Shown here: piece by piece, positions 1,606-54,297 of the stretch
How the letters are laid out: each line of letters begins with the position of its first letter
Numbering within the stretch: position 1 is the first letter of the stretch
Source: Desulfobacterales bacterium
Lineage (GTDB): Bacteria; Desulfobacterota; Desulfobacteria; Desulfobacterales; SURF-7
Length of the DNA: 64,000 nucleotides
Direction: 5' to 3'
NCBI GenBank assembly: GCA_028277765.1
Contig: JANQFQ010000126.1
Location: forward strand, 30,165-94,164
The notes under the pieces: model-generated
The model's input: the letters and a program-made list of their open reading frames with translations, nothing else
The model's database searches: none
Told to the model about the DNA's origin: nothing
Program-made: the position numbers and the translations under genes

Positions 1606-2508
1606 TTATTGTACAGTGGTCTGGTTTAAAAATACTTTTACTTCATGTAAAACCTTTTCCGGCTCATCTTCAAGCAGATAATGGCCGGCATCTGAAAATA
1701 ATCGTGTTTCCGCGTTGGGAAACCTTTTTTTCCATTCTTCATAATAGGTGCCGTCAAAAACAAAATCGTGTTTCCCCCAGCAGATAAGTTTTGGTATAGA
1801 GGCGAGAATATGAAGATGGTCATCAGCATTTTTTACAATATCGTAGCTGTGATCCCCCGGAGCAAGGGGGATATCCTGTACAAATTTAAGCGTGGCGATC
1901 CGGTTTTTCCATGAATTGTAAGGCGCAATCAATCCTTTTTTCACATCTCTGGACAGCCTTTTTCTGGGAGCCATATAAAGAGCTGCACGGGCAAAAATGT
2001 TCAGGCCCAGGACTGCAGGAATAGCAAAAGAGGCAATATTCCTGACAATCCATAAGCGGAGTGGAATTTTTTTCCCGCCGGGCGGCAGAAACGCTGCTGT
2101 ATTCAAGATGACCATTCGTGCAATTTTATCAGGATGTCTTAACGCATATGCTGTTCCGATCATTCCTCCCCAGTCATGAATAACCAGGGTTATCTTTTCA
2201 TTCAGGTTTAATGTATCAATGAATAACTCCAGATCGTCTATCCTTGATTTTAACCTGTAATCGTATGAATCCAGACCAGGCTTGTCAGAAAGACCACAGC
2301 CGATATGATCAACAGCTATTGTCCTGTAAAGCGGGGACAGGCCTTTTATAAGTTCCCTGAAATAGAATGACCACGTGGGATTTCCGTGAATCATCACAAC
2401 CGGATCACCAGAACCTTCATCAATATAATGGTATTTAAATTTGTTGATTTCAACAAATCTGGATGTAAATGGATACAGGTGCTGAAATTCTGATGTGTTA
2501 AGAGTCAT
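1606..2508 (-). CDS. oleB: OleB, beta-lactone decarboxylase (haloalkane dehalogenase-like alpha/beta hydrolase)
   Basis: HGNPTW oxyanion motif, HDWGG nucleophile Asp, GHYLLED His; lies between oleA and oleC. Confidence 0.9.
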   Translation of the reverse strand: MTLNTSEFQHLYPFTSRFVEINKFKYHYIDEGSGDPVVMIHGNPTWSFYFRELIKGLSPLYRTIAVDHIGCGLSDKPGLDSYDYRLKSRIDDLELFIDTLNLNEKITLVIHDWGGMIGTAYALRHPDKIARMVILNTAAFLPPGGKKIPLRLWIVRNIASFAIPAVLGLNIFARAALYMAPRKRLSRDVKKGLIAPYNSWKNRIATLKFVQDIPLAPGDHSYDIVKNADDHLHILASIPKLICWGKHDFVFDGTYYEEWKKRFPNAETRLFSDAGHYLLEDEPEKVLHEVKVFLNQTTVQ

Positions 2509-2517
2509 TATGTTGGA

Positions 2518-3558
2518 TTACCACTTAATCCCCAGCATCAGGCAGTTGAGGCCGCTTCCTATCCCGAGGAAACCGACAAGATCGTCCTTGACAAGAAATT
2601 CCCGTTCAGAGGCGATTGCTGCTGTAAGGGGGAGGGAGACTGTACCCATGTTGCCCAGAAACTGGAATGTTGTAAAATCCCTGTCATCAGGGATACCGAT
2701 GGAGTCCCGTATGGTTTTTTGATGAACAGAACCGACCTGGTGGCAGATGATTTTATCTGGCTGTCCGTTGGTTAAAGAGAGCTCTTTTTTAAACGCGGTA
2801 AATGTCTCAATCCCCAGCTTTACGCCATTTTTTAAGACACCAACGGAATCCGTATTCATCACATTAAGACCACTTGCAGGGATGCCGGTGTCAGGCCCCC
2901 ATGTACAAAGTTCATGGTGTTCGGCAGCGTTTTTCATGATGCCGCCGATAATTTTATGGCTGTTGGATGCAAGGGATTCGTCAGTAAGGAGTACGGCAAC
3001 AGCTCCTGAACCGCCGGTAAGGGTGGCGACTGTCCTCCTGAAGGTATCCATGTCCATGGCTTCAAGGATACGGTCAATGGTGCTGTAAACGATCTGACGC
3101 GCTGATTCGCATGACACCACAAGGCCGGCTTTTATCTGACCGAGTTCAATGGCGTTTGCCGTATGTATCATGCCGTTGATAACGCCAAGGCAGGCGTTTG
3201 ACACATCGCAAATCTCCGTATCAGGACTTAAACGAAGACCGTGGGAAACCGCACAGGCCGTTGCTGGTTCAAGGTTGTCACGGCATACACCGCCATAGAC
3301 AAGCATCTGTATCTGTTCAGGGGAAATCCCGGAGTTTTCGATTGCTTTCTGTCCAGCGCGGATGGCGCCCATATGCATTTTATAGTCAGGATCCCAGAAG
3401 CGCCGCTCCCTTACACCGGTCAGTGCTTCCAGCTGCCCCTTTTGAAGGTGAAGTTTATCGTAGAGAGGGAGGAGGTTCTCTTCCAGGTCCTCTGATGTTA
3501 CAACGTTAGGGGCCAGTTCATAGCCAAAAGATTTTATATAGACTTTTGAATAAAGCAT
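2518..3558 (-). CDS. oleA: OleA, acyl-CoA condensing thiolase/KAS III-family enzyme
   Basis: RDNLEPATA (catalytic Glu), DVSNACLG (Cys), HQVG and LGNMG (His/Asn), LGIGSGLN; operon with oleBC. Confidence 0.9.
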   Translation of the reverse strand: MLYSKVYIKSFGYELAPNVVTSEDLEENLLPLYDKLHLQKGQLEALTGVRERRFWDPDYKMHMGAIRAGQKAIENSGISPEQIQMLVYGGVCRDNLEPATACAVSHGLRLSPDTEICDVSNACLGVINGMIHTANAIELGQIKAGLVVSCESARQIVYSTIDRILEAMDMDTFRRTVATLTGGSGAVAVLLTDESLASNSHKIIGGIMKNAAEHHELCTWGPDTGIPASGLNVMNTDSVGVLKNGVKLGIETFTAFKKELSLTNGQPDKIICHQVGSVHQKTIRDSIGIPDDRDFTTFQFLGNMGTVSLPLTAAIASEREFLVKDDLVGFLGIGSGLNCLMLGIKW

Positions 3559-3596
3559 CGTATGGTTATGTATAATTTTTAAAAAAAACTGGTTGA

Positions 3597-3625
3597 TTTA
3601 TATACGTGCCTGTTGCTTATGTCAA
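3597..3625 (-). promoter_or_regulatory. Putative sigma70 promoter of oleABC
   Basis: Minus strand TTGACA (3625-3620), 17 bp spacer, TATAAA (3602-3597), about 40 bp upstream of the oleA start. Confidence 0.6.
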
Positions 3626-3748
3626 CTTATCAATTACTGTAAAGATCATGGCCCAGAGGCCCAGGGTTTTCATATCAGACTAAATATTATAAAGTTAGCT
3701 TTTCAAATCCTGTAACTCGTATTTTTACGATTAATATGAAAAATTGGA

Positions 3749-6700
3749 TTAAGCGGGCAATAGCTGGATTCCAAAATCGTCCATTTTGTAAATATACAGT
3801 CCATCAACTTTCAAATAACCATCTGCGATAATACCTGGATATGGATGTTCAAGGATTTTTTTCACAATTGCTTCAACCACGATCTTCTTGTTTCCCTGAA
3901 CAATTTGTCCCCTGTACAGCCATGAATGGGGATGCCCGGTTAAAAGACCGAATCTGTGTGAGTGGGACAAGTCTTTCCATTTGTCCATAACCATAAACTT
4001 CAACAGCTGTGTAAAGGAATCAAGACCGAGTGATCCCGGGCACACAGGATCCTGAAAAAAATGGGCCTTGAAAAACCACTCCTCAGGGTCGACTTCTTTG
4101 GTTCCCCGGATAAAGCCAAGGCCATGGGGGCCGCCGTCGGGAATATACACCTCAATATCGTCGATCATGCGGATGGCCTTTGCAGGCATAACAGCTCCTC
4201 TCACCGGGTCAACCGTTTTGTCATCTGGTGATAATGGCGCGGTGTCTTCTAGTCTGCAGGAGACAGATCTTTCTAGTTCGCCCGGTGAAGGGACATAAGC
4301 GTTTTTATTTGCCCCTGGTATGCCGACCTGTTGGGCGAGTGCTTCTTTTGTAAAAAAACCAAAATAAGATGTTCCTTTATAAACAGTTGTCTCCTGTTGT
4401 TTAATCTCCATATCAAAATGTTCAATAATCATATCCGATGTTTCAGACACCTTGGTCATGCGTGATCGGGTAGTGAGCAGACTGTCTTCAGCCGTTATTT
4501 CATGAAACAGGGTCGTGCTTCCGCCAAGGTTCCGGAATTTGAGTTCCTTTTCGCTCCTGAGGGAAGAACCAGCATATGCGGCAAGCCATCCGCACGGCTG
4601 AAGTGCGATTTCATTGATAATGCAGTAAGGTATGGTGTTTGTCCTGTTTGCCTTGAAGAACCAGTCATCATGATGGATATTAAATTCCGCCTCAATCCAT
4701 CCAGAGGCTTTCAATATCCATGCTTCGGGTTCGATAAGGGTAATACGGTCCATGCACAGGTATGGCGGCCCAGGAAGCCTGGCAACAACTTTTTCGTTAT
4801 CAAAAACCTTATACAGTTCTCCAAAAGCATCTGATGGTTTGCCAACTGCAAAGTCGAGGAGTTGTTTCTTACTGAACAGGGTCGGCTTTCCAACAGAGAC
4901 AGATTCGATATTGTTGTCTTTATCTCTTTTATCCCAGAAAGATTCGACCTCATCTTTTGTGATATTGCTCAATTTAAGGGACATATCTTTAAAAAAGACA
5001 ATTTCATTGCCGTCTGTATACATATGGGCGTCCGCGATAATATACGGTTCAGGGTTGTAGCCGATTTTTTTGATTTCAACCTCATAAATGACATGGTCTG
5101 TTTCAGGTGTAACTGGTCCGCGGCATTTGAGCCGGCTTTTTACACCGATGACCGGTTCATACCGGACATCCTGCTTGTCCGTAACCCAGCCGAGTCGCTG
5201 GGAAAAGACACGGAGTGTGTGCTCACAACACTGATACATCAATGTGCCTGGCATGACCATGTCATCTACAAAATGGCAGGTCAGAAACCAGTCATCAGGA
5301 TGGATGTCTGCCTCAGCACGAATAATCCCCATACTGTACCTGCCGCCTTGAGGATCGATATCCAGGACACGGTCGATGAGCTTCATTCTTCCGCCGGGAA
5401 GGGTTATTGATTTAGGGAGATGAATTCCCTTGAAGTTTTCACCAAAGCCTGTTTCAAGGTCACCCTGTCTAAGGGCATCCACCTGGGTATCATCCATGGT
5501 ACATCTGGAAAAAGAGACCAGGTCTTTCCAGCCTGGATCCTTTGAGCCAGGTTCAGACCGTAAATCTTCTTCCGTAAGGATGATCCCGCCGGAATTCTCA
5601 ACCTCTTCTTCCGTGAAAAAGCCGGCACATCCATTTGTCATACTGATAAGATGTGAATCGCCGATATATCCGTTAAAATTAAAAAAGAACAAATAGGTGT
5701 CTCCCTGGCGGGCAAACCGTTCTATTTTGATTTCATATTGGATCACATCTCCAGGGCAGGGGAGTTCCCTGTGGAATACTACTTCAGCATCAAGAAGCCT
5801 GTATGCCCTTTCTCCTTTAACTTGAAGATCGATCCCTAGAAATGAACATAAAAACAGGTCTGCCTGTCCAGCTTCAACAGATATACATACAGGCGCTCTC
5901 CCTCCGTCAAGATACCAAGCATCAGGAAGGACATCATGCTCGGTTACTATTTTTCCTGACATCATTGAACATTTTTTACCTTCTATAGAGATAATCCTGT
6001 CAACCAGCATGAGCGGTTCATCTGGAAGGCGCACCCTGACATTGTATTCGTCAACAGGCGCGAATTCAGGGCCGAGAACCTTGGCAATCGATCCAACGGC
6101 AAATTCCATGCACAATTCGCGGGAAAAGGCAGGCAGGGAGGCCCTGTTTTTAAATGCTGGATCGTCTGTTATGGATTCAGGCATCCTCTCTTCATGGTGT
6201 ACTGCGGTTCCAGCTATATTTACCTGATGTAATAGGTATTGCTGGAGGTCAAAGGCTTGTGCGTATGTGTCAGAGAGTTCAGTTGAGAAATCAATAAATG
6301 CGTTATGCGCTTCAGATGTTGCTTCAATGCATTGAACCATTGTTCGGGAGAGTTCATTACCGGGAAGTTTTTCTGATACAAATAGCTGGCCGTTGGATTT
6401 GTTGTCAGGAAGATCGATAGTATTATTTATTATATCAGTATATTGAGATTGAAATGGGGCTTTGGTTTCTTCCATGTATGGTGTTGCTGGCCTTAATGGG
6501 GGTTCAGGGGAGGGAGGGGGACTGCCAACAACAATGGTAATTTTGTTTCCTGAATGGGCGTGCATTTCCTTTGATGTTTCAGCCTGGTCAAGAAGCAGGG
6601 GAGGGTATTCATCATCTCCATACAGTTTTTCAAGGTCAACATGGATATGTTCAGCCGCAGTTGCGGCAAGAAACTTTAAAACCGTAAGATAGTCATCTTC

Positions 6701-9700
6701 GCCCCGTGCGCACGCTGAAACAGCCAGGTGTGGTTTATCCTTAAGAATGTTGTTGATCATTCGTGTACAGGATGAATGGGGGCCCATTTCAAAAAATATT
6801 CTATATCCGTCCTTATAAGCCTGATGTATTGTCTCGGTAAAATCAAAACCAAAAAGCGCCTGGTTAAGAATTGACGAGGCTGTGCTATCGGTTGTGAGTT
6901 TGTGGATTCTACCCCGCGCGCAGCTATAATAGTCTATACCATCAGGCTGGTTTACAGGGAATAGATGCAGGGCTTTATAATCTTTTTTTACAGGTACAGC
7001 CGCATTGCAGTGAACAGTTACCACACCTTCAAGTAAAAAGGCTTCACACCCGAGTCTTGTGATGGCGGCTTCAACCTGTTTTTTTCTTCCGCCGATGACA
7101 CATTCATCAGGTGTGTTTACAATAAGCAGATTAACGGAATGAAGCTTTTTCACTGCTTTTTTTACAGCATCAGCAGGACGGTTTACCACAGCAACTGTCC
7201 AGCCAACATCTTCATCAGCAGGGACTTTCCACACCTTTCGAGCAGCATTACACGGACCTGCCAGTTCGGTTTTGAAAAGATTTGAATTTTTCATCCTTTC
7301 AAGCATATTTCCCCGTTCAGGCCATGCGCCGGTTGCGAAATAACCAGCAGTCTCCCCAAGGCTGTAGCCGATCACCGCTTTTGGTTTTATACCGAACCGG
7401 TTCACCAGTTCTGTAACAAGGCCACCATGGACAACCTGCCCGAAGATCATATTCAAAGGGTCTGATATAATGATATTATGCGCGTTTTCTTCCCATCCTG
7501 AATCCCAGGTAACACGCCAGGGGACATAGCACGCAGGTATCATCTGTGTTTTCAGTTCATCGGTTCGATGATCCATATTTCTTAGAAGCTCAGGCCACTG
7601 AACACCTGTGACACGGCCCATGCCCACGTAGTGATTACCTGATCCAGGATAAACAAATGCGACATTGTCTGAGATTCCTGAAGGTTCGGGGGAAAACCAT
7701 ACACCGCCAGGGCCGGTGATTTGGGAGCCGGTTTTTTCTCTTACTCTCTTTTTTGCCTGTTCCACCCATTTGTCAAGATTCAGAATATCACTTGCTACAA
7801 TAGATACAACATAACGGCTGCTCATATCAGGCGTGCTTTTTTCAAACCAGGACCTGGCTGTTAGTTCCATGCTGTCATGGATATCTGCTTTTTTTCGCGC
7901 ATGCTGGAGGAGATGGTCCAAATTCTCTGTGAGGTTCTTTTTATTTGACCCATGAACAATAAACAGACCAGCATTCTGAAGACCAAGAGGTTTTGTATGT
8001 TCTCGAAATACTTTCTGTAAAACAGCTTTGCTCCCTTTTTGTTCATAACCTTCAAGAATAACATGTGCGCAGTTGCCTTCATCTGTCATGGAGGCAATAC
8101 ATGTTCTTCGCGGTCCATTTTTGCTGTTTCTCAGCCAATAAGAGGGATATTTAGGAATATAAAAAATGTTATTGTCCCAGAGATCCTTCATGGCCGGGGA
8201 TGTAAAACCAGGCAGGGGAGGGATGATTTCATGATAAACAGAGAGGCAAGTCTTAATAAATGAGGCCATACTCCCTGCAGCACCTGCATGTCCGATATTC
8301 GGCATTATTGATCCAATGGCTGCCTGTCGGTATAGGGGTATGAGTGTGTCTTCTTGAATTCTAAGATGTTTTTCAAAAAAAACATGAAGGGCTTCTGCTT
8401 CAGCTGTATCTTCAAATTGGTTTCCACTGCCATGGGTTTCAATCTGGCTGATGGATGAGGCTGGTACATTTGCATCTTTAAAAGCGCGTTCAAGAGAGAG
8501 AATATATGATTTTTTTGTTTCCTCAATTGCCTGTTTTTTATTTGAAGACAGGTTTCCACAGGCAACAGCCCCATTTCCAGCAGAACCAATACCTTTAATG
8601 ATAGCATAAATCCTGTCATTATCCCTGACAGCGTGATCGAGCCGTTTTAAAACAACTGCGCCAGCCCCTTCGCATGGAAGGGGACTGTTTGGAGAATGGT
8701 CAAACGGGATGGACGGATTTTTCCTTGAATAGGGGCGTATGATGTTTGACGCAATTAAGTTCCTGATATCACATGATAAATCAACAGCGCCGATGATAAA
8801 AGAATCGGTTTCACCATTTTGGATTGATCGCAGCGCTATTTCCAGGGCTTTAATTCCTGATGCTTCTTCACAGGAGACCACAAATCCAGGGCCGCCGAGT
8901 CTAAATTCACGGGCGAGCCTGCTGGCAATAATACCGCCAAGGTTTCCGAGTGTACGCGCGGACGTAAGCGGGGGACCGCTTGAATCCCTTAGTTGTTCAA
9001 GCCATTCTTCCCTTTGATTGGCGTTAAGTTTTAAACTGTTTTCAGATATCCATTTATCTAATAAATTCAACATGTTCCATCTGAGGTGGTAGTTGGTTGC
9101 CTCAATATCAAAATTTATTCCAATTACCGCACCCATTTCAGGCCGATTTTTTCGTAAAGGGAGGCCCGCGTCTTTCATGGCATTTGCTGCGACTTTCAGC
9201 ATCAGGAGATGCTGGGGAAGGATATCTGGTATCTCGTTCGGCTGGATATGAAATTCACCAATCAGAATTGACAGCTCGTCAATGAAGTTACCAAAGGGCA
9301 TATCATTGTCTAGAAATAGTGATGATATGTTTTCTCCCCCTTTCCACCTGTTTTTAGGTCGTTTTTGGAAAGCGTTTACTCCATTGAATACTACTTCCTG
9401 GAAGTCACGCAATGTCTTGATTTCGCCAAATAAAGTATCCATTCCAATAACAGCTACATTTGGCGTCGATTCTTGTTGGTCGGTTATGGTAAGCGATGAT
9501 TTTTGAAAATGTTTTTTTGTTTCAGGTAACCATTCTTCAACAAGAAGATGCGCGTTGATACCACCGAATCCAAAAGCACTGACAGCAGCTCTGCGCGGGA
9601 TATGTTTATCTCTTTGTTTCCATTCTTCTGGTTCTGTCTGAATTTTAAACGGGCTGTTAATCAGGGGGCTGTCATCAGGCGGTTCTGAAAAATTGAGTGA

Positions 9701-10876
9701 AGGGGGAAGCATCCGATGATTTAAGGCAAGAATCGTTTTGATTAGACCGGCAGCTGATGAAGCGGTTAACAGATGGCCGATCATGGATTTGATCGATCCA
9801 ATAGCGCATTGTCCTTTGTCCCAGCCATCATTGCCCCATAAGGTATTCAGACTTTTCAGCTCTTCTGTATCACCAATGGGTGTTCCGGTACCATGACATT
9901 CAATATAATCCACATCAAAAGGGGACCAACCAGTTTGTTTGTATGCTTTGTGCATTGCCCTGACCTGTCCTTCACTGTCAGGTGTGAGCAGGTTACCTTC
10001 AATGTCATTTGAAAGTCCGATACCGCGGATAAGGGCGAAAATATGGTCATTGTCCCGAAGGGCGTCATTGAGCCGTTTCAGGACAAGCATTCCCGCACCT
10101 TCACCTACAACAAGTCCGTCGGCTGTTTTATCAAACGGCGAGCAAACACCTGAAGGGGAGAGGGCCTGGAGCTGAGTAAATCCGATCTGGGTATAAAGAG
10201 AATCTGGTCTTGAAACACCACCCGCAAGCATCACATCAGCCCGTTTTGAATTCAACGCATCACAGGCAAGCTTTATTGCGTAAAGTGAGGAAGAACAGGC
10301 AGCATCCAAAGTATAGCTCCCTCCACCAAGACCAAAAGCCTTTGCTGTCAGAGATGCTGGAAAACTGGTTATCCTTGAAGCAAGACTCTGGTGTATGGAA
10401 AGGGCTCGAAAGTCTGTTGATGATGAGCCAGGAAACAGAGTCTCTTCAAAAGACCGTCCTAGAATCTCTCTTGTGATAAAGGAGGATGTGTCTGTGGGGA
10501 GAACAATGCAGGCAAGGATAACACCTGTATTTTTTCGATCAATGGATGAGATATCGCACAAAGACAAAGCATTTTGCGCAGTATGAAGAACGATATGATA
10601 TAGAGGATCAAGCTTGGCAAGAAAACGTTCATCTAATGCTGCATGTTGAGGAATAAATTTAAAGTCATGGATAAGGCCGGCCCACCTGGAACATGCTTTG
10701 TCAGGAACAAGTGTTTCACTGAAAACAGTATCTGGCGGAATAATCCACCGGTCATCCGGCACCTCTGATATGGTTTCTTTTTTATTAATGATATTCTGCC
10801 AGTATGTCTTTAGATCAGGTGCACCTGGAAAAAGCCCTGACATACCGACAACAGCAATAGGCGGTTTCGTATGCAT
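3749..10876 (-). CDS. PUFA synthase/iterative type I PKS subunit, PfaBC/Pfa3-type (KS-CLF-AT-FabA-like DH modules)
   Basis: KS with DAACSSS/HGTGT/GHLL; second KS-like domain with Cys->Glu (VSCEEASG, chain-length factor); AT GYSLG; FabA-type DH motifs HFVDDMVMPG and HFFQDPVCPG, each preceded by a pseudo-DH (RLPDEPLMLVDRI, RLPGPPYLCMDRI); no ACP/KR/ER. Confidence 0.9.
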   Translation of the reverse strand: MHTKPPIAVVGMSGLFPGAPDLKTYWQNIINKKETISEVPDDRWIIPPDTVFSETLVPDKACSRWAGLIHDFKFIPQHAALDERFLAKLDPLYHIVLHTAQNALSLCDISSIDRKNTGVILACIVLPTDTSSFITREILGRSFEETLFPGSSSTDFRALSIHQSLASRITSFPASLTAKAFGLGGGSYTLDAACSSSLYAIKLACDALNSKRADVMLAGGVSRPDSLYTQIGFTQLQALSPSGVCSPFDKTADGLVVGEGAGMLVLKRLNDALRDNDHIFALIRGIGLSNDIEGNLLTPDSEGQVRAMHKAYKQTGWSPFDVDYIECHGTGTPIGDTEELKSLNTLWGNDGWDKGQCAIGSIKSMIGHLLTASSAAGLIKTILALNHRMLPPSLNFSEPPDDSPLINSPFKIQTEPEEWKQRDKHIPRRAAVSAFGFGGINAHLLVEEWLPETKKHFQKSSLTITDQQESTPNVAVIGMDTLFGEIKTLRDFQEVVFNGVNAFQKRPKNRWKGGENISSLFLDNDMPFGNFIDELSILIGEFHIQPNEIPDILPQHLLMLKVAANAMKDAGLPLRKNRPEMGAVIGINFDIEATNYHLRWNMLNLLDKWISENSLKLNANQREEWLEQLRDSSGPPLTSARTLGNLGGIIASRLAREFRLGGPGFVVSCEEASGIKALEIALRSIQNGETDSFIIGAVDLSCDIRNLIASNIIRPYSRKNPSIPFDHSPNSPLPCEGAGAVVLKRLDHAVRDNDRIYAIIKGIGSAGNGAVACGNLSSNKKQAIEETKKSYILSLERAFKDANVPASSISQIETHGSGNQFEDTAEAEALHVFFEKHLRIQEDTLIPLYRQAAIGSIMPNIGHAGAAGSMASFIKTCLSVYHEIIPPLPGFTSPAMKDLWDNNIFYIPKYPSYWLRNSKNGPRRTCIASMTDEGNCAHVILEGYEQKGSKAVLQKVFREHTKPLGLQNAGLFIVHGSNKKNLTENLDHLLQHARKKADIHDSMELTARSWFEKSTPDMSSRYVVSIVASDILNLDKWVEQAKKRVREKTGSQITGPGGVWFSPEPSGISDNVAFVYPGSGNHYVGMGRVTGVQWPELLRNMDHRTDELKTQMIPACYVPWRVTWDSGWEENAHNIIISDPLNMIFGQVVHGGLVTELVNRFGIKPKAVIGYSLGETAGYFATGAWPERGNMLERMKNSNLFKTELAGPCNAARKVWKVPADEDVGWTVAVVNRPADAVKKAVKKLHSVNLLIVNTPDECVIGGRKKQVEAAITRLGCEAFLLEGVVTVHCNAAVPVKKDYKALHLFPVNQPDGIDYYSCARGRIHKLTTDSTASSILNQALFGFDFTETIHQAYKDGYRIFFEMGPHSSCTRMINNILKDKPHLAVSACARGEDDYLTVLKFLAATAAEHIHVDLEKLYGDDEYPPLLLDQAETSKEMHAHSGNKITIVVGSPPPSPEPPLRPATPYMEETKAPFQSQYTDIINNTIDLPDNKSNGQLFVSEKLPGNELSRTMVQCIEATSEAHNAFIDFSTELSDTYAQAFDLQQYLLHQVNIAGTAVHHEERMPESITDDPAFKNRASLPAFSRELCMEFAVGSIAKVLGPEFAPVDEYNVRVRLPDEPLMLVDRIISIEGKKCSMMSGKIVTEHDVLPDAWYLDGGRAPVCISVEAGQADLFLCSFLGIDLQVKGERAYRLLDAEVVFHRELPCPGDVIQYEIKIERFARQGDTYLFFFNFNGYIGDSHLISMTNGCAGFFTEEEVENSGGIILTEEDLRSEPGSKDPGWKDLVSFSRCTMDDTQVDALRQGDLETGFGENFKGIHLPKSITLPGGRMKLIDRVLDIDPQGGRYSMGIIRAEADIHPDDWFLTCHFVDDMVMPGTLMYQCCEHTLRVFSQRLGWVTDKQDVRYEPVIGVKSRLKCRGPVTPETDHVIYEVEIKKIGYNPEPYIIADAHMYTDGNEIVFFKDMSLKLSNITKDEVESFWDKRDKDNNIESVSVGKPTLFSKKQLLDFAVGKPSDAFGELYKVFDNEKVVARLPGPPYLCMDRITLIEPEAWILKASGWIEAEFNIHHDDWFFKANRTNTIPYCIINEIALQPCGWLAAYAGSSLRSEKELKFRNLGGSTTLFHEITAEDSLLTTRSRMTKVSETSDMIIEHFDMEIKQQETTVYKGTSYFGFFTKEALAQQVGIPGANKNAYVPSPGELERSVSCRLEDTAPLSPDDKTVDPVRGAVMPAKAIRMIDDIEVYIPDGGPHGLGFIRGTKEVDPEEWFFKAHFFQDPVCPGSLGLDSFTQLLKFMVMDKWKDLSHSHRFGLLTGHPHSWLYRGQIVQGNKKIVVEAIVKKILEHPYPGIIADGYLKVDGLYIYKMDDFGIQLLPA

Positions 10877-37610: not shown

Positions 37611-38510
37611 ATGGCAATAAATATAAAATCGCTTTTACAGCAGGCAGAGATATATCGTTCTCAAGGCCTTCTCCAGGATGCCGAAAAGAAATATCTTGAA
37701 GTCGCCACAGCTATAAAAAACAGTGATAATATTCAAAATAAGAATAAACTGCTAAAAGCTGTTAAAAAGAAACTATCTGCTGTTCGTAAAGATAATGAAG
37801 ATGTTGAAACAGCACCTACATCTCCGGAGATGTCATCTCATGTAAATGAGATGATTAAAAAACTTTTTTCATTTTCACATGACAAAACCAATGAGGAAGA
37901 AGCCGCCCTTGAAGGCGCCATCGCCCTGGCTAAATTCGGTCAGTTTGAAGGGGCGATTACTGAATTTAAGAAACTTCTGGAGAAAGAATCAGTAGGCGTT
38001 GCCGCAGCTAAAAACATCATCCGGTGCTTCATGACACTTGATTCAATAGACGCAGCGTCAACACAGATGTATGAATGGGAATCAAGCGATTATTTTTCTG
38101 CTGAGCAGATGGAAAAGATCCGAAGCTTTTTTGATGAAATGCTTGAGAAAAAAGGGATTAAGCGGGATCTTGCCGCATCTGATCTGCCTGAGGAAGAAGA
38201 GGCTGTTGAAGATGAAGAATTCCTTGATATCAGCGCTGTTGCAATAACTTTTGACAGCGGTCCTCATAAAGGGGAACAGGTTGAACTGGATGTCAGTTTT
38301 CAGTCTGGAAATATCATCAGCCTTATCATCTCTAGCAATGACGAGCATATGATAGAAAACCTTCAAGTTGGCGTTAAGCTTGAGGATATACACTTCTATT
38401 CTCCCATCGCCATTTTCAGGGGGACGGGAGTAGTTTCAGCAAAAACACAAATTAATTCAGGCCCTAAAAAGGGTGATTACAGTGTAGATATAAAAATTCA
38501 GAGTATTTAG
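37611..38510 (+). CDS. TPR-like protein with C-terminal beta-barrel (degenerate PilZ-like) domain
   Basis: TPR-like helices (AEIYRSQGLLQDAEKKY; ALAKFGQFEGAITEF), acidic linker, beta-rich C-terminus. Confidence 0.55.
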   Translation: MAINIKSLLQQAEIYRSQGLLQDAEKKYLEVATAIKNSDNIQNKNKLLKAVKKKLSAVRKDNEDVETAPTSPEMSSHVNEMIKKLFSFSHDKTNEEEAALEGAIALAKFGQFEGAITEFKKLLEKESVGVAAAKNIIRCFMTLDSIDAASTQMYEWESSDYFSAEQMEKIRSFFDEMLEKKGIKRDLAASDLPEEEEAVEDEEFLDISAVAITFDSGPHKGEQVELDVSFQSGNIISLIISSNDEHMIENLQVGVKLEDIHFYSPIAIFRGTGVVSAKTQINSGPKKGDYSVDIKIQSI

Positions 38511-38597
38511 CGATTGAAATACAACATTAATTTTTTGTTAATAACCGTGTTAGAACTGTACGGATAGATATACGGCCCTGGAACTGGATAGACATAT

Positions 38598-39212
38598 ATG
38601 GCAATTTTTAACATAAAAAAACGAGAAATTGAATGTAAAATTGTTTACTATGGGCCAGGCAGGTGTGGAAAGACTACCAATCTAGAATATATCTTTAAGT
38701 CCTATAAAAAGCAGGTTGAAGGTGAAATGGTTTCCATTAACACAGAAGGTGACCGTACCCTGTTTTTTGACTTTCTTCCTATGGAACTCGGAAAAATCAA
38801 AGGATGTGAAATACGCGTTCAGATGTTCACTGTTCCTGGTCAGGTACAGTACAGTTCTACCAGAAAACTCGTATTAAAAGGGGTTGATGGCATTATCTTT
38901 GTCGCTGATTCAATGGATGTCAGGCGTGAAAAAAATATGGAATCACTCAAAGATCTCCAGAAAAACTTAAAAGAATACGGTCTAAATATTTTCAAAATTC
39001 CACTGGTTCTTCAGTATAATAAAAGAGACCTTGCTGAACAGGGCATACCGATTATGTCTGTTGAACAAATGGAAAGAGACTTAAATCGGCAGCTGAAAGT
39101 CCCTGCATTTCCAGGAAGTGCGATGACGGGAAAAGGTGTTGGGAAAACACTTCAGGAATGTTTAAAACTAACCCTGAAGTCACTTCATAAACAGTTTAAC
39201 TGGGCGGAGTAA
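38598..39212 (+). CDS. mglA: MglA-family Ras-like small GTPase
   Basis: KIVYYGPGRCGKTTNL, DRTLFFDFLP, TVPGQ, LKGVDG..FVADS, QYNKRDL; closely parallels Myxococcus MglA. Confidence 0.92.
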   Translation: MAIFNIKKREIECKIVYYGPGRCGKTTNLEYIFKSYKKQVEGEMVSINTEGDRTLFFDFLPMELGKIKGCEIRVQMFTVPGQVQYSSTRKLVLKGVDGIIFVADSMDVRREKNMESLKDLQKNLKEYGLNIFKIPLVLQYNKRDLAEQGIPIMSVEQMERDLNRQLKVPAFPGSAMTGKGVGKTLQECLKLTLKSLHKQFNWAE

Positions 39213-39222
39213 CTAACGAATT

Positions 39223-40395
39223 ATGGGTATATCCCTTTCAGGTGATCTAAGTTATATGAGTTTAGGTGAACTGGTTCAGATCTTTGGTTCAAACGGCAGT
39301 ACAGGTATACTTCGTCTTATGAATAAGTACAATGATAATCTTGGTGAGGTTCACTTCTTTAACGGTAATCCTGTAAATGCCATATGCGACAAGAAACAAG
39401 GGAAGGATGCCCTCTATATGCTTTTTGGCTGGACTGAGGGTGAATTTGAGTTCAATCTTACAAATGTAAACGAAAAGGATTATATTAAAAAAAGCAGGAT
39501 GGAGATCATGCTTGAAGGTTCAAGGATGGTCGATGATGGTGTTATAGAAAAAGTAGGTCCTGTTTCATTTAAACGGGGGGATAAATCGACTGGCAATGCC
39601 CTCCCTGTTATTTCAGGTCCCCTTGTTGATTACATGTATGTGGTTGATGAAGAAGACTATAAAGACGGGCAGGAAATTATTAAACAGGGAAAACACGGGA
39701 ACTGGAACTGGGTTGTTCTTGATGGGATCGTTGAAATTCGCAAGGAGACTCCTAAAGGCCCGATTCCTATTCTCAGAGTTGGTAATGGTTCATTCGTGGG
39801 AAGTATAGCAGGGCTGCTAACAAAAAATAACGTTCGTAGCGCGTCCGTGGTCGCCGACGGTGATGTCCAGCTCGGGGTCGTGGATTCTCAGCGGCTTTCA
39901 ATGGAATACGCCCGTTTATCACGTGAATTTAAAAATATCATTCTAAGCCTTGATAAAAGGGTTAAGCAGATTACAAATAAGCTTGTTGAAATAGAGCTTA
40001 TGATAAAAACGGATGACTCCAACATCACAAAAGGAAAAGAAATAATAATAAAACAGGGTTCCAACAAAAAAGACGCCTTTATCGTTACAGATGGTAGAGC
40101 ATTTGTAATAAGAAAAACAGACAGTGGTTATGTGCTTCTCGCTACACTTGAAGAAGGAGATTTTTTCGGTTCTATCCCTTTTCTTAACCTTGGGCAGGAA
40201 CCGGATTCAGCGCATGTGATAGCGCCGAAAGGCCAGTTGGTACACGATGTTGTAGACTGTGACCTTCTTCAAAGTGAACACGATAAGCTCTCAGCGACAT
40301 TTAAGAACATGATAGAAAATACTGCGATATTTCTATCAGCAACGACGACGCTATCATGTACGCCCAAAAAAAAGAAAAAAAAGGGGAAAAAATAG
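39223..40395 (+). CDS. DUF4388 (PatA_N-like) domain + two cNMP-binding-like domains
   Basis: LSGDL..MSLGELVQ..TGILRL..GEVHF..G..WTEGEFEF N-domain; two cNMP-fold segments (IIKQG..VVLDG.V..RSASVVA; IIKQG..IVTDG..LEEGDFFG). Confidence 0.8.
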   Translation: MGISLSGDLSYMSLGELVQIFGSNGSTGILRLMNKYNDNLGEVHFFNGNPVNAICDKKQGKDALYMLFGWTEGEFEFNLTNVNEKDYIKKSRMEIMLEGSRMVDDGVIEKVGPVSFKRGDKSTGNALPVISGPLVDYMYVVDEEDYKDGQEIIKQGKHGNWNWVVLDGIVEIRKETPKGPIPILRVGNGSFVGSIAGLLTKNNVRSASVVADGDVQLGVVDSQRLSMEYARLSREFKNIILSLDKRVKQITNKLVEIELMIKTDDSNITKGKEIIIKQGSNKKDAFIVTDGRAFVIRKTDSGYVLLATLEEGDFFGSIPFLNLGQEPDSAHVIAPKGQLVHDVVDCDLLQSEHDKLSATFKNMIENTAIFLSATTTLSCTPKKKKKKGKK

Positions 40396-40413
40396 TTTTT
40401 TTGTAATATCATT

Positions 40414-40782
40414 ATGCCGTTTAAAGAGAGAAAACATAACAGGATAGAATCATTCAAGCTGATTTCCTATACCTGTATAGACGAGAATAACAATGTGGTC
40501 AGTCAGGGAATGGGAAGAACGTTAAATGTAAGCGAGGGAGGTATTCTTCTTGAAACACACGTTCTTGTTGCTGTTGGCACTATAGTATCACTCGCGATCG
40601 GTCTTGAGGATGATCTTGTGAATTTGTCTGGCAAGGTAATGCACAATAAACCGGGTAAAAAAGGAATGTTTGAAGCAGGTATAGAATTCCAACCAATACC
40701 TGATCAGAAAACCGTCCGGGTTCTGAATAAATATATCCAAGCGTTTAAATCACAAATGAAAGGAGATGATTCTGATCAATAG
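40414..40782 (+). CDS. Stand-alone PilZ domain protein
   Basis: RxxxR (RKHNR) and NxSxxG (NVSEGG) c-di-GMP motifs; GIEF. Confidence 0.85.
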   Translation: MPFKERKHNRIESFKLISYTCIDENNNVVSQGMGRTLNVSEGGILLETHVLVAVGTIVSLAIGLEDDLVNLSGKVMHNKPGKKGMFEAGIEFQPIPDQKTVRVLNKYIQAFKSQMKGDDSDQ

Positions 40783-40905
40783 ACGTCATCTCTGTTATTG
40801 ATGTTAACCACACCAACTAATTGTTTTATTCATGAAAATGCATCTCTTATCTTTCATATCGACTTACAAATACAGGAATTGGTATCTCTTATACCAGTAA
40901 AGAGA

Positions 40906-41856
40906 ATGCATTTCGATATTCAAAAAGTTGATTTGTCGAGTATAGATTTACACGACTATACATTTCACATCACTTCCAGAACAGATCATCAGGATATAAA
41001 ACAGTCGATCGCAGACATCGGTTTAATAAACGCTCCCATATTATCACGCAGGGAATCTAGATATATTGTTATCAGCGGGTTCAGACGTATCAACGCATGC
41101 AGTGCGTTAAACATGACAAGCGCAAGCTGCAGAATTGTTACGCCAGATACCAGTATGCATGACTGTGCGAAACTGGCTGTTTCAGAGAATTCATTTCAGC
41201 GCGAGCTCAATCTTGTTGAACAATCCCGTGCCCTAAATTTGCTCACTGAATTTATAAAAGATCAAACAGATACCGCGGTTGAAGCTGCCAGTCTGAACCT
41301 GCCGGGAAATTATTCTCTAATAAATAAAATTAAAAAAATCACCTTGCTCCCTGATCAGATTCAGGAGGGGCTTCTGAACGGTTCCATCTCACTTTCTGTT
41401 ATCCTTGAGATAGAAGAGATGGAAAGGGATGAGGGGATGAAGTTTGCGGAAATCTTTAACAGCCTTAAATTGAGCCTGAACAAGCAGAGAGAAATTATTA
41501 CCCTGGTAAAAGATATCGCTTTCAGAGAAGATACAGGTATTTTGGAGGTACTGGAAAATGATGATATAAGCGATATATTGAATAACAATGATGACAGGAA
41601 TCAGAAAAGCCGTGAATTAAGACTCTTTTTAAAGCAATGGCGGTATCCTTCCTTATCAGAAGCAGAGGCTCATTTTGATCAATGTGTTAAAGAGCTGAAG
41701 CCGGGTACCGGTATCAAGCTGATTCCCCCTAAGTATTTTGAAGGCCCTGATTATTCCCTTCATGTCAATTTCAGGGATGTTGAGGAGCTTGAAGAACGTA
41801 AAGCCGCACTTGATAAAATGATCAAAAGTCCAGCATTAAAAAAAATTTTAGAATAG
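40906..41856 (+). CDS. ParB/Srx-like N-terminal domain protein
   Basis: SIADIGLINAPIL, VISGFRR (GxRR box), EN.FQRELNLVE, helical/HTH-like region; ATG 40906 preferred over TTG 40798. Confidence 0.8.
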   Translation: MHFDIQKVDLSSIDLHDYTFHITSRTDHQDIKQSIADIGLINAPILSRRESRYIVISGFRRINACSALNMTSASCRIVTPDTSMHDCAKLAVSENSFQRELNLVEQSRALNLLTEFIKDQTDTAVEAASLNLPGNYSLINKIKKITLLPDQIQEGLLNGSISLSVILEIEEMERDEGMKFAEIFNSLKLSLNKQREIITLVKDIAFREDTGILEVLENDDISDILNNNDDRNQKSRELRLFLKQWRYPSLSEAEAHFDQCVKELKPGTGIKLIPPKYFEGPDYSLHVNFRDVEELEERKAALDKMIKSPALKKILE

Positions 41857-41900
41857 ATTGAGGGAAACTAATACTGTTTTTTTTTCTTAGCTGTTATCAT

Positions 41901-41977
41901 CCAGCATCTAGCATCCAGCATCTAGCATCCAGTATCCAGTAACCAGTAACCAGTATCTAGCATCTAGTAACCAGTAT
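41901..41977. repeat. Tandem heptamer array C(C/T)AG(C/T)A(T/A) x11
   Basis: ccagcat ctagcat ccagcat ctagcat ccagtat ccagtaa ccagtaa ccagtat ctagcat ctagtaa ccagtat. Confidence 0.95.
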
Positions 41978-41994
41978 AATTAAAAGGCAAGACC

Positions 41995-43092
41995 GTGTCG
42001 TTTTCAGAAATTTATATTGATTGTGATGTGGCTGACACAGATGCTGTAAAAACGATTAAAACCCGTCTTGATATGCCATTAACCATCGTGGATGATGTCC
42101 GCAGCGTATATAGCCTTGTGGCGTCTTCACAGGATCCGGTTAGTAAGGGAAAAGAGATCCTTTTTCTTACGAAAAACAGGGGCACTTTTATTAAAAACTG
42201 TCCAGGTACCCGTTCATATAGGTGCTGTGGATATAAGATTCTTCATATCGGTACCTTCTGTACCATGGACTGTGCCTACTGTATCTTACAGGCATATTTT
42301 CATCCGCCTTTGACACAGCTTTACGTTAACCATGATGATTTGATGGATGAACTTGGGAACCTGTTCACCCAAAACAGCATCAGCAGGGTAGGTACCGGGG
42401 AATTTACCGACAGCCTAATTTGGGAACCTTTTACAGATCTTCCTGCTGTGCTGGTGTCAGAATTTGCGGAACAGACAAAAGCGGTTCTGGAATTAAAGAC
42501 TAAGACCGTTAATGTAAAAGATCTTCAGCATATCACGCATAATCAAAAAACCATCATCTCCTGGTCACTCAATACAAACAGAATCGTTGAAAGAGAAGAG
42601 AGAGGGACAGCATCACTCTCAGAAAGATTAACGGCAGCTGCGGCATGTGAGTCCTGGGGATATAAGCTTGCGTTCCATTTTGATCCGGTGTTTATCTATG
42701 ATGGATGCGAAGATGACTACCAAGAGGTTATTGAACAGATGATTGCTGCTGTTTCTCCTGAAAGTATTGTGTGGATCAGTATCGGTTCTTTCCGGTATAT
42801 GCCGGACCTGAAACCGATTATACAAGAGCGTTTCCCTGAAAGTAAAATCGTCTATGGTGAATTTATAACCGGCCTTGATAATAAAATGAGGTATTTTAAG
42901 CCACTCCGTCTGAAGCTTTACCAGAAAATGGTATGCTGGATAAAAGAGTTGGCCCCGGAGGTTCTGGTCTATTTCTGTATGGAAGATGATGAGATCTGGA
43001 AAAAAAGCATCGGTTTCAAACCGTCAGACAAAGACGGCCTCCCCAGGATGCTCGACAAGAGTGCTGCAAAGCACTGCGGCCTGAAAATTTAA
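41995..43092 (+). CDS. Spore photoproduct lyase-like radical SAM protein
   Basis: CTMDCAYC CxxxCxxC motif, GEFTDSL, ELKTK, SWSLN, ERGTASLSERL, FHFDP, YFCME. Confidence 0.82.
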   Translation: MSFSEIYIDCDVADTDAVKTIKTRLDMPLTIVDDVRSVYSLVASSQDPVSKGKEILFLTKNRGTFIKNCPGTRSYRCCGYKILHIGTFCTMDCAYCILQAYFHPPLTQLYVNHDDLMDELGNLFTQNSISRVGTGEFTDSLIWEPFTDLPAVLVSEFAEQTKAVLELKTKTVNVKDLQHITHNQKTIISWSLNTNRIVEREERGTASLSERLTAAAACESWGYKLAFHFDPVFIYDGCEDDYQEVIEQMIAAVSPESIVWISIGSFRYMPDLKPIIQERFPESKIVYGEFITGLDNKMRYFKPLRLKLYQKMVCWIKELAPEVLVYFCMEDDEIWKKSIGFKPSDKDGLPRMLDKSAAKHCGLKI

Positions 43093-43109: not shown

Positions 43110-43817
43110 ATGTCTAACTTGAAATTGATACGCGCCTTCAATCCACTCAGACCTCAGATCTCAGTCCTCAGTACTTTTTTGAGAAATATAACAGTGATTG
43201 TTCTGTTTATCCTTTGTTGTCATCTGTCTTATGCAAAAGAAATCCGTTTAAGGGTCAAATATGTCATAGACGGCGACACCATTGTCCTATCAAATGATCG
43301 CCACATAAGGTACATTGGTATTAACACGCCCGAAGTTGAACGTAAGGGGAAACATCCACAAAAAGGCGAACCGAATGGAAAGGAGGCTAAGGTTTATAAT
43401 AAAAAGATCGTGCTCGGTAAAACCGTGCGTCTTGAGTTAGACCAGAAAAAAGAAGATCAATACGGTCGTTCGCTGGCTTATGTCTTCCTTGAAAACAACA
43501 GGTTTGTCAATCTTGAGATGCTGGAAAAAGGGTACGCTTTCTTTATTCAAGGAAAGAAAAATAAAAAATACAGTGCTGAACTGCTGAAGGCCCAGCAGAG
43601 AGCCATGATGAAGAAAACAGGGATGTGGAAGGGATGGCGGATTAAAACCAGGACCTATATCGGGAATGTAAATTCAAAACGATTCCATGAAAGAGAGTGC
43701 CAGTTTGGGAAAAGGATTAACAAGAAAAAAATAAAAGTATTTACAAACCAATGGGATGCTTTCTGGAATGGGTATGCGCCGTGTAAGAAGTGTCTGGGGA
43801 ACAAAGCTAGATACTAG
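43110..43817 (+). CDS. Thermonuclease (SNase) family protein with C-terminal Ada-like Zn-binding domain
   Basis: VIDGDT, IRYIGINTPE, DQYGRSLAYV; C-terminal FHEREC...GYAPCKKC; exact start uncertain. Confidence 0.85.
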   Translation: MSNLKLIRAFNPLRPQISVLSTFLRNITVIVLFILCCHLSYAKEIRLRVKYVIDGDTIVLSNDRHIRYIGINTPEVERKGKHPQKGEPNGKEAKVYNKKIVLGKTVRLELDQKKEDQYGRSLAYVFLENNRFVNLEMLEKGYAFFIQGKKNKKYSAELLKAQQRAMMKKTGMWKGWRIKTRTYIGNVNSKRFHERECQFGKRINKKKIKVFTNQWDAFWNGYAPCKKCLGNKARY

Positions 43818-52805: not shown

Positions 52806-52833
52806 ACGTCTGATAAGATATATTATGTAAACT
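52806..52833 (+). other. dif-like XerCD chromosome dimer resolution site
   Basis: ACGTCTGATAA-GATATA-TTATGTAAACT: 11-6-11 layout matching the E. coli dif pattern (GGTGCGCATAA-TGTATA-TTATGTTAAAT); intergenic; KOPS polarity flips around it. Confidence 0.85.
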
Positions 52834-54190: not shown

Positions 54191-54297
54191 CCTGCTAAAA
54201 AAAAGTAGGATCTACGCTTCGCTACGACCAGTATCCAGTATCCAGTATCCAGCATCCAGTATCTAGTATCCAGTATCTAGTATCCAGTATCCAGCAT
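54191..54297 (+). repeat. Dispersed hairpin repeat copy C followed by 10 tandem heptamers C(C/T)AG(C/T)AT
   Basis: cctgctaaaaaaaagtaggatctacgcttcgctacga, then 10 units at 54228-54297. Confidence 0.9.

Follow-up and report, generated by a model that had tools for sequence, protein, structure and literature searches.

A co-inherited radical SAM enzyme, ParB-derived protein and glycosyltransferase in Desulfobacterota: a possible oxygen-independent route to a sugar-modified DNA base

Background

What does an enzyme resembling spore photoproduct (SP) lyase do in a bacterium that apparently makes no spores, and why should its gene follow one for a protein of the ParB type? The question is raised by a 64,000-nucleotide stretch of DNA (hereafter, the window) from a Desulfobacterales bacterium (GenBank assembly GCA_028277765.1, contig JANQFQ010000126.1, positions 30,165 to 94,164). 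Here, a gene for a ParB-derived protein, the partner (40906..41856, plus strand; 316 aa), is followed by a gene for a radical S-adenosylmethionine (SAM) enzyme of the SP-lyase fold (41995..43092, plus strand; 365 aa, GTG start). The ATG start of the partner gene aligns with the starts of its homologs, which do not share the TTG located further upstream, at 40798. The gap of 138 bp between the two genes is mostly taken up by an array of 11 copies of a 7-bp repeat (41901..41977, plus strand), which appears to be a bystander. The enzyme is the only PF20903 match in a profile search of the genome, and the names under which databases list its homologs are 'spore photoproduct lyase' and 'DNA photolyase'. 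In line with the presumption, made in an earlier sequence-only reading of the window, that the host does not sporulate, no Spo0A above the cut-off and no small acid-soluble spore protein (SASP) were found in this 91.8%-complete genome. The same reading had described the two open reading frames, the GFRR motif of the partner and the lack of parA in the window, all of which were borne out by the open reading frame and family searches. A canonical parA, with a parB that carries GERRLRA, lies on contig C53, so that the partner is the second ParB-type gene of the genome.

Here we argue that the enzyme and the partner form a real module, and that the third member of this module, which had gone unnoticed, is a family 2 glycosyltransferase (GT2). 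We tentatively propose, at clearly less than an even chance, that the three co-inherited genes make a sugar-modified DNA base without oxygen. Whatever the substrate, the module offers a direct test for an annotation that has long lacked an explanation, namely that of a spore photoproduct lyase where no spores are made. A literature search, with supplements outside its range, returned no description of the pair or the trio; the main text of a survey of ParB folds (PMC12704722) makes no mention of radical, spore or lyase, and the part of RadicalSAM.org available to us gives the SPL cluster without a ParB or GT2 context.

Co-inheritance and predicted complex of the enzyme and its partner

Among 151 genomes of the order, the enzyme ortholog is present in 139 and the partner in 139, both in 136, neither in 9 and each alone in 3; second copies and weak matches, of E 1e-41 or worse, were treated as paralogs and do not enter these counts. 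The two genes are on different contigs in 49 of the 136 genomes that have both; the 87 pairs located on one contig include 27 that are separated by up to 300 bp, 19 by up to 3 kb, 33 by 3-20 kb and 8 that are far apart or opposed. In a set of 251 genomes of the phylum, 9 of them from the order, the enzyme is found in 149 (E 7e-41 or better; 5 genomes with weaker matches were dropped) and the partner, among the matches listed, in 148 (E 2e-29 or better, after removal of canonical ParB cross-matches), both occurring in 145. In the 4 genomes scored as carrying only the enzyme, a short partner adjoins the enzyme gene, so that the partner is present in 149 of the 149 enzyme carriers, as expected for the conserved, undescribed pair that the sequence-only reading had suspected. 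Thus, more than half of the Desulfobacterota carry the enzyme-partner module. Its range beyond the phylum, with four loci labelled as belonging to other phyla, is given by Atlas labels only (Thermodesulfobacteriota, Candidatus Binatota).

Could the adjacency be a mere relic of gene order within the Desulfobacterales? Of the 136 pairs found in genomes from outside the order, 95 are no more than 400 bp apart and 5 have the reversed gene order, and direct adjacency is seen in 31 of 40 loci from different families, the neighbourhoods of which are otherwise unrelated. Chance adjacency through order-level synteny was therefore rejected.

The co-inheritance is matched by a predicted physical coupling. 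The predicted complex of enzyme and partner scores 0.80, as compared to 0.00 for the best control, with 100% contact agreement between runs and a predicted local distance difference test (pLDDT) value of at least 86 for the partner. In the benchmark of this score, which is only rough for the alignments used, 116 of 157 solved pairs attained the mark, as did 2 of 215 mismatched ones. On the enzyme side, the predicted interface comprises residues 284-304, a shortened beta-hairpin region (42844..42906, plus strand) that is 6 residues shorter than in SplB and devoid of its Arg-Tyr tip, together with residues 331-333 of a C-terminal extension. The predicted docking surface of the partner spans residues 203-281 (41512..41748, plus strand), with contacts at 203, 206-207, 247-250, 253 and 276-281, and includes the RYP and FEG motifs; its columns are more conserved than the remainder of the protein (0.54 vs 0.36) and fall in the half that truncated partners keep. 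To our knowledge, no complex of this kind, between an SP-lyase-fold enzyme and a ParB-derived protein, has been solved. Since the partner accompanies the enzyme in 149 of 149 carriers and the complex prediction stands at 0.80 against 0.00, we conclude that enzyme and partner form a real module.

An SP-lyase fold with a rebuilt pocket

The assignment of the enzyme to the SPL family holds: it matches PF20903 with 92 bits (cut-off 27), and its model (pLDDT 96) superposes on SP lyase with template modelling (TM) scores of 0.79-0.80 (0.80 to 4fhc, with a root-mean-square deviation (rmsd) of 3.1), whereas the other radical SAM enzymes listed in the fold search score 0.48 or less. However, it stays below the cut-offs of the SP lyase equivalogs (TIGR04070, 113 vs 400 bits; TIGR03886, 44.9 vs 437.55 bits) and is 22-23% identical to SplB. 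The radical SAM motif C89-x3-C93-x-Y95-C96 (42259..42282, plus strand) is preceded by a three-cysteine loop, C69-P-G-T-x4-C77-C78 (42199..42228, plus strand), which comprises the extra cysteines noted earlier. The C-terminal extension of 35 residues (YxCME..., with conserved C328-M329-E330) is absent from SplB.

Residues of the enzyme were mapped by sequence alignment on the Geobacillus SP lyase, conservation being scored over 39 sequences; the roles of the SP lyase residues are taken from PMC3467042. The SAM contacts are retained (D139, K170, S191), and so are the equivalents of Arg273 and Lys309, which hold the intra-lesion phosphate (R267 and K297, both in 39/39), and of Tyr339, a base contact (Y326, in 37/39). 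Other SP contacts are gone: Arg193 is replaced by Ser or Ala in 39/39 and Glu268 by Ser in 37/39, so that of the dihydrothymine contacts Arg193, Glu268 and Tyr339 and of the hairpin tip Arg304/Tyr305, only Tyr339 is retained. In place of Tyr98, 38 of 39 sequences have Phe or an aliphatic residue, yet Tyr itself is found in 60 of the 80 loci of one metagenome clade. New conserved residues are E166, K168, H228 and D230. The retained phosphate and base contacts, as well as the ancestry of both proteins, indicate a nucleic acid as the substrate, and the rebuilding of the pocket excludes SP as a likely one.

It is thus highly improbable that we deal with an ordinary SP lyase of the clostridial type in incidental surroundings, even though this would account for the PF20903 match, for Cys69 and for the names of database homologs. 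Such an enzyme would hardly score below the TIGR04070 cut-off at so low an identity to SplB, lose Arg193, Glu268 and the hairpin tip, and be tied to an obligate partner in a host where no Spo0A above the cut-off and no SASP were found. Judging by these replacements, the earlier suggestion that the enzyme is not a canonical SP lyase appears sound.

One argument for that suggestion fails, though. The motif GTGEFTDS (42391..42414, plus strand) does stand where SP lyases carry their H-donor, with E136 at the Cys140/141 position (Geobacillus Cys140, Glu in 38/39) and D139 at Asp143, and the missing Cys141 had been taken as a sign of a new substrate. This loss is not diagnostic because clostridial SP lyases lack the cysteine too and use a Cys at the position of Geobacillus Ser76, which is that of C69 here. 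Unlike the single alternative H-donor, C69 belongs to a set of three. Among 59 sequences, 45 have C69 together with C77-C78, 8 from two lineages are without C77 but show a Cys at position 71 in its stead, 1 has four cysteines and 5 have none or one; among 160 further loci, there are three in 157 and four in 3. Since the count of three is held despite the swap of position, the loop cysteines may be ligands of a metal or an auxiliary cluster. In the 5 sequences without the loop cysteines, H228, W260, K168 and Y326 are altered as well, and these come from lineages in which no GT2 ortholog was found (none in 3 of 3 genomes of the cysteine-less clade).

Relatives of the enzyme add some variety to this picture. 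A distinct subfamily (L121, L122, L242-L244) has neither the three cysteines nor GT2, and its gene order is often reversed. Another SPL-like subfamily adjoins a short-chain dehydrogenase gene (L208:5829-7969) in a record that is filed as phage and looks bacterial; a different pair of radical SAM genes lies close to the SPL-like gene in that record.

A ParB-derived protein with an optional head

The partner consists of a ParB/Srx N-domain (1-100), a helical middle, a helical insert (~190-246) and a ParB-like beta-beta-alpha C-terminus. Its scores against ParB families are below threshold (TIGR00180, 35.8 bits vs a cut-off of 58.45; PF02195, 15.8 vs 26.3); a search of PDB sequences gives clear ParB/Noc matches (best E 4e-5), and the model (pLDDT 95) matches the folds of ParB, Noc, KorB and PadC.

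The sequence-only reading envisaged the partner as a CTP-dependent clamp that delivers the enzyme to DNA. To weigh this, the residues of 32 family members were compared with the canonical ParB of the same genome, the roles of the nucleotide-binding residues of ParB following PMC13229309. The P motif GxxR, here GFRR (residues 58-61; 41077..41088, plus strand), retains G58 and R61 in 32/32 members, but none of the 32 has the catalytic Glu of GERR, the place of which is taken by F, Y, R, W or C in the five commonest classes. G39 is kept in 32/32, S34 in 26/32 and N95 in 23/32; the residues most often seen at the site equivalent to the C-motif Gln do not include Gln, the C-motif Arg is present in 8/32, and the equivalents of Myxococcus Q52, R54 and E93 are not retained. 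The positions of the recognition helix vary freely. The conserved portion is C-terminal (E196, D/E203, R207, RYP, FEG), and the C-terminal half alone is encoded at 4 of the 40 loci that were fetched, where none of the reading frames contains an N-domain, and at 66 of 67 loci of one metagenome clade (those with sufficient upstream DNA). Clusters of such short partners, of 162-194 aa, carry the label uncharacterised in the Atlas.

Thus, with the hydrolysis residues lost and the CTPase domain missing in a whole clade, a clamp is not the core of the module; as far as can be told from the protein sequences, the CTPase domain is dispensable. What stands of the delivery idea is the predicted physical coupling. 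Taken together with the absence of the CTPase head from a clade, it leads us to regard the partner as a ParB protein turned enzyme subunit, in which the nucleotide-binding head is optional.

The third member, a glycosyltransferase

In the fetched loci, a GT2 gene repeatedly adjoins the pair. In the genome considered here, its ortholog is unlinked to the pair (contig C141, 175-993, minus strand). Within the phylum set of 251 genomes, 141 carry GT2; of these, 138 also have the enzyme and 3 do not, and 11 enzyme carriers lack GT2; all three genes occur in 138 genomes (134 before the short partners were counted) and none of the three in 98. Among the 125 carriers from outside the order, a contiguous GT2-partner-enzyme run is seen in 37, only the GT2-partner link in 7 and only the GT2-enzyme link in 5, and in a metagenome clade of 80 loci GT2 is located upstream in 51 of the 52 loci with sufficient upstream DNA. 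When the three proteins are compared over 23 loci, their distances have correlations of 0.88-0.89, which shows joint inheritance at most because kin share their history. Beyond single lineages, no fourth recurring gene was found.

GT2 is a single-copy protein, 44-64% identical across the phylum, with DxD and ED motifs kept, and is probably active; it carries two basic patches on the acceptor side (mean net charge +4.5 and +4.6). At L116:6997-8637, a weak PNP_UDP_1 nucleosidase-like domain (E 0.0017) precedes the GT2 of the module in one fused protein. A third member of this kind shifts the balance away from repair and in favour of modification: a co-inherited GT2 with basic acceptor-side patches points to a product that is built up, not to the reversal of damage.

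Does the sugar go to a nucleic acid at all? The product of the trio could instead be a small molecule, cofactor or envelope lipid that bears a sugar, with the fold of the enzyme turned to a nucleotide-like or phosphorylated substrate. The matches of GT2 are to polysaccharide and natural-product transferases, the fusion to a nucleosidase-like domain would fit, and the combination of radical SAM enzyme, nucleosidase and GT2 resembles hopanoid side-chain synthesis; besides, in the model the partner occupies the hairpin of the enzyme. We nevertheless deem this possibility unlikely, with no transporter, carrier or lipid gene recurring beside the module and no obvious role for a ParB-derived subunit in a pathway of this sort.

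What the module may make

Our preferred, if tentative, reading can be cast as follows. The ParB-derived partner would dock on the shortened hairpin of the enzyme in the predicted heterocomplex and, by holding or bending DNA, might stand in for the lost base-flipping tip. The radical enzyme would activate a base, most likely at the methyl group of thymine. The three loop cysteines, perhaps joined by C328, could hold a second metal or Fe-S site that takes up the electron, whereby the substrate radical would be oxidised and not quenched. GT2 would then add a sugar to the activated base, if the two steps indeed follow in this order. That the substrate is DNA and not RNA is something we infer.

A more specific version of this reading, which we hold to be rather doubtful, sees in the module a chromosomal, oxygen-independent counterpart of the TET/JBP enzymes and their glycosyltransferases: a two-cluster enzyme switched on by the ParB-derived protein would oxidise a base methyl in the DNA of the host itself, which GT2 would glycosylate to yield a mark like base J in bacterial chromosomes. 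Oxidation and glycosylation of DNA bases by enzymes are known from eukaryotes and phages, and the oxidation needs oxygen. If true, a radical SAM route in the chromosomes of a large, mostly anaerobic group would be novel in its chemistry and would provide bacteria with a DNA mark of a new kind.

Several observations weigh against DNA modification. The substrate and the chemistry are both inferred. The module is a single-copy one, set in unrelated housekeeping operons, and so looks housekeeping-like and not anti-phage-like. No viral copies were confirmed with enzyme patterns, viral contigs or PHROGs: phage collections gave two matches to the enzyme, at 21-24% identity, and the one examined was rejected as a different SPL-like gene, without a partner, among bacterial-type genes, while GT2 matches in viral sets are generic (best 1e-34). 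PADLOC returned no match for the module. The nearest named families of GT2 are polysaccharide transferases, all below cut-off, and GT2 is not obligatory: genome G288, which is 99% complete, encodes the enzyme and the partner in their typical form and gives no GT2 match. Of the 9 order genomes without the pair, 6 retain GT2 and 3, all of one family, lack it, although these genomes are drafts, in which one missing contig would remove both linked genes. Furthermore, the interface columns of the enzyme are no more conserved than its remainder (0.52 vs 0.51), the helix-turn-helix positions of the partner are not conserved and the short partners lack that region, and the genomes counted are kin, so that the counts are not independent. 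It is the housekeeping-like distribution, the lack of viral or defence matches and the GT2 exceptions that keep our estimate for a sugar-modified DNA base well under an even chance.

Some of these observations would suit RNA better. In this case the enzyme and the partner would alter a nucleoside of tRNA or rRNA, and GT2 would glycosylate it, which agrees with the single-copy, conserved GT2, the similar branching of the three genes, their placement in constitutive operons and the lack of viral copies among those searched for; the retained phosphate contacts suit RNA equally, and the DNA-flipping tip is lost. On balance, this is still an unlikely function: the closest solved relatives of both the enzyme and the partner act on DNA, no RNA-binding domain is seen, and no tRNA-modification gene recurs as a neighbour in 80 loci.

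Surroundings of the locus and the case for repair

The sequence-only reading had attached weight to the nearness of repair genes and of dif. The distances are roughly as claimed: a gene that we take to be uvrC-like ends 4.7 kb upstream of the pair, a presumably polA-like gene lies ~24 kb upstream, and a gene assumed to be xseA-like and a 28-mer that we regard as dif-like from the consensus (52806-52833, between the xseA-like and a BI-1-like gene) are 8.1 kb and 9.7 kb downstream, respectively. Their meaning is another matter. In 20 loci of the order, chosen for long contigs, the block reads, with gene names that are mostly our presumption, uvrB-uvrC-mglA-like-purC-partner-(TetR, acs-like insert)-enzyme-nuclease-fusA. 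In a profile search of 80 loci (20 of them GT2 loci, the other 60 enzyme or module loci of genomes from other orders; 3.5-7 kb flanks), no uvrB, uvrC or xseA homologs were found, and nearness to uvrBC is therefore no functional sign; the link to uvrBC and dif was rejected as order-level synteny.

Accordingly, direct radical repair of some other DNA lesion, to which the ParB-like protein would bring the enzyme while the GT2 link had another cause, gains little from these neighbours once the order is left, and we view it as quite unlikely. It could appeal to the SP-lyase fold across the whole length of the enzyme, to Cys69 at the alternative H-donor site, to the closeness to uvrBC within the order and to a gene, presumably endonuclease-III-like by its motifs, that adjoins the enzyme in 4 loci (one family) of the GT2-less clade. 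It would leave unexplained GT2, present in 138 of 149 carriers and often in an operon; the conservation of three loop cysteines instead of one and the dispensable CTPase domain also speak against it.

Two other neighbours were tried as members of the module and rejected. Inside the order, where the pair is often split by the TetR/acs-like insert, purC is the tighter neighbour (17/20 loci) and overlaps the partner gene in most loci; in this genome it has moved to a different contig (C152:20246-21139), and no more than 3 of the 80 loci searched with profiles contain it. The thermonuclease-family gene directly 3' of the enzyme gene (43110-43817), which has a weak Ada Zn-binding tail, recurs in 9 of 21 order loci and 2 of 80 others.

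The window holds further features of note. Upstream of the pair, genes for a TPR protein, an MglA-like small GTPase, a DUF4388-cNMP protein and a PilZ protein (37611-40782) form a block kept in the order. The dif-like 28-mer sits near the turn of the cumulative GC skew. The 7-bp unit C[CT]AG[CT]A[AT] has a second array in the window (54228-54297, 10 copies), and there are 32 arrays genome-wide, of 4-23 copies each. At 1606-10876, a large gene like those of type I polyketide synthases (2375 aa) is grouped with 3-oxoacyl-ACP synthase-like and hydrolase-like genes, in what we presume may be an olefin or polyketide cluster.

Comparison with known systems

How does the module relate to systems already described? 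With SplB (Geobacillus 4FHC-4FHG, 4RH0; TIGR04070; PMC3467042), the enzyme shares the whole fold, CxxxCxYC, the SAM residues Asp143, Lys174 and Ser195, as well as Arg273, Lys309 and Tyr339, and has a Cys at the Ser76 position, as clostridial SP lyases do. It differs in Cys140 -> Glu, Arg193 -> Ser/Ala, Glu268 -> Ser and a hairpin that is 6 residues shorter, and its family has the three-Cys loop, the CME extension, a dedicated partner along with GT2, and non-sporulating hosts. The partner, in turn, resembles ParB, Noc, KorB and PadC in the fold of its N-domain (PadC, Z 15.4, rmsd 2.1, 97 aligned residues; KorB, Z 11.5, rmsd 1.9, 89 aligned), in GxxR, S34, G39 and N95, and in a domain order that ends with a ParB-like C-terminus. 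Unlike the ParB CTPases, it has no parA partner, has lost the Q52, R54 and E93 equivalents, shows a variable recognition helix and an extra helical insert, and can dispense with the N-domain. Hence, the enzyme fails membership of SplB, and the partner that of the ParB clamps.

Two phage systems also invite comparison. Phage M6 gp53, a glycinyl-thymine isomerase (PMC8989533), is an SPL-like radical SAM enzyme that modifies a DNA thymine and does not repair it, a likeness that follows from its description; it is viral, acts on an amino-acid adduct of 5-hmU and has, in that account, no ParB partner or GT2. The phage thymine dioxygenases 5mYOX (PMC13229309) have ParB-like activators that do not need the nucleotide-binding residues, so that there, too, a ParB-derived protein serves a base-modifying enzyme, and glycosyltransferases occur in such loci; GT-A enzymes are reported to glycosylate DNA bases (bioRxiv 2023.12.21.572611). 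The differences from 5mYOX, as far as they are covered in that report, are substantial: there, an Fe/2-oxoglutarate TET/JBP dioxygenase is encoded by viruses, here, a radical SAM enzyme is chromosomal and single-copy; the N-terminal ParB domain is required there and is missing from a whole clade here; and no stable complex was detected there, whereas a complex is predicted here. By analogy, then, the module would seem to work most like ParB-activated base modification, with a different chemistry and in a different location.

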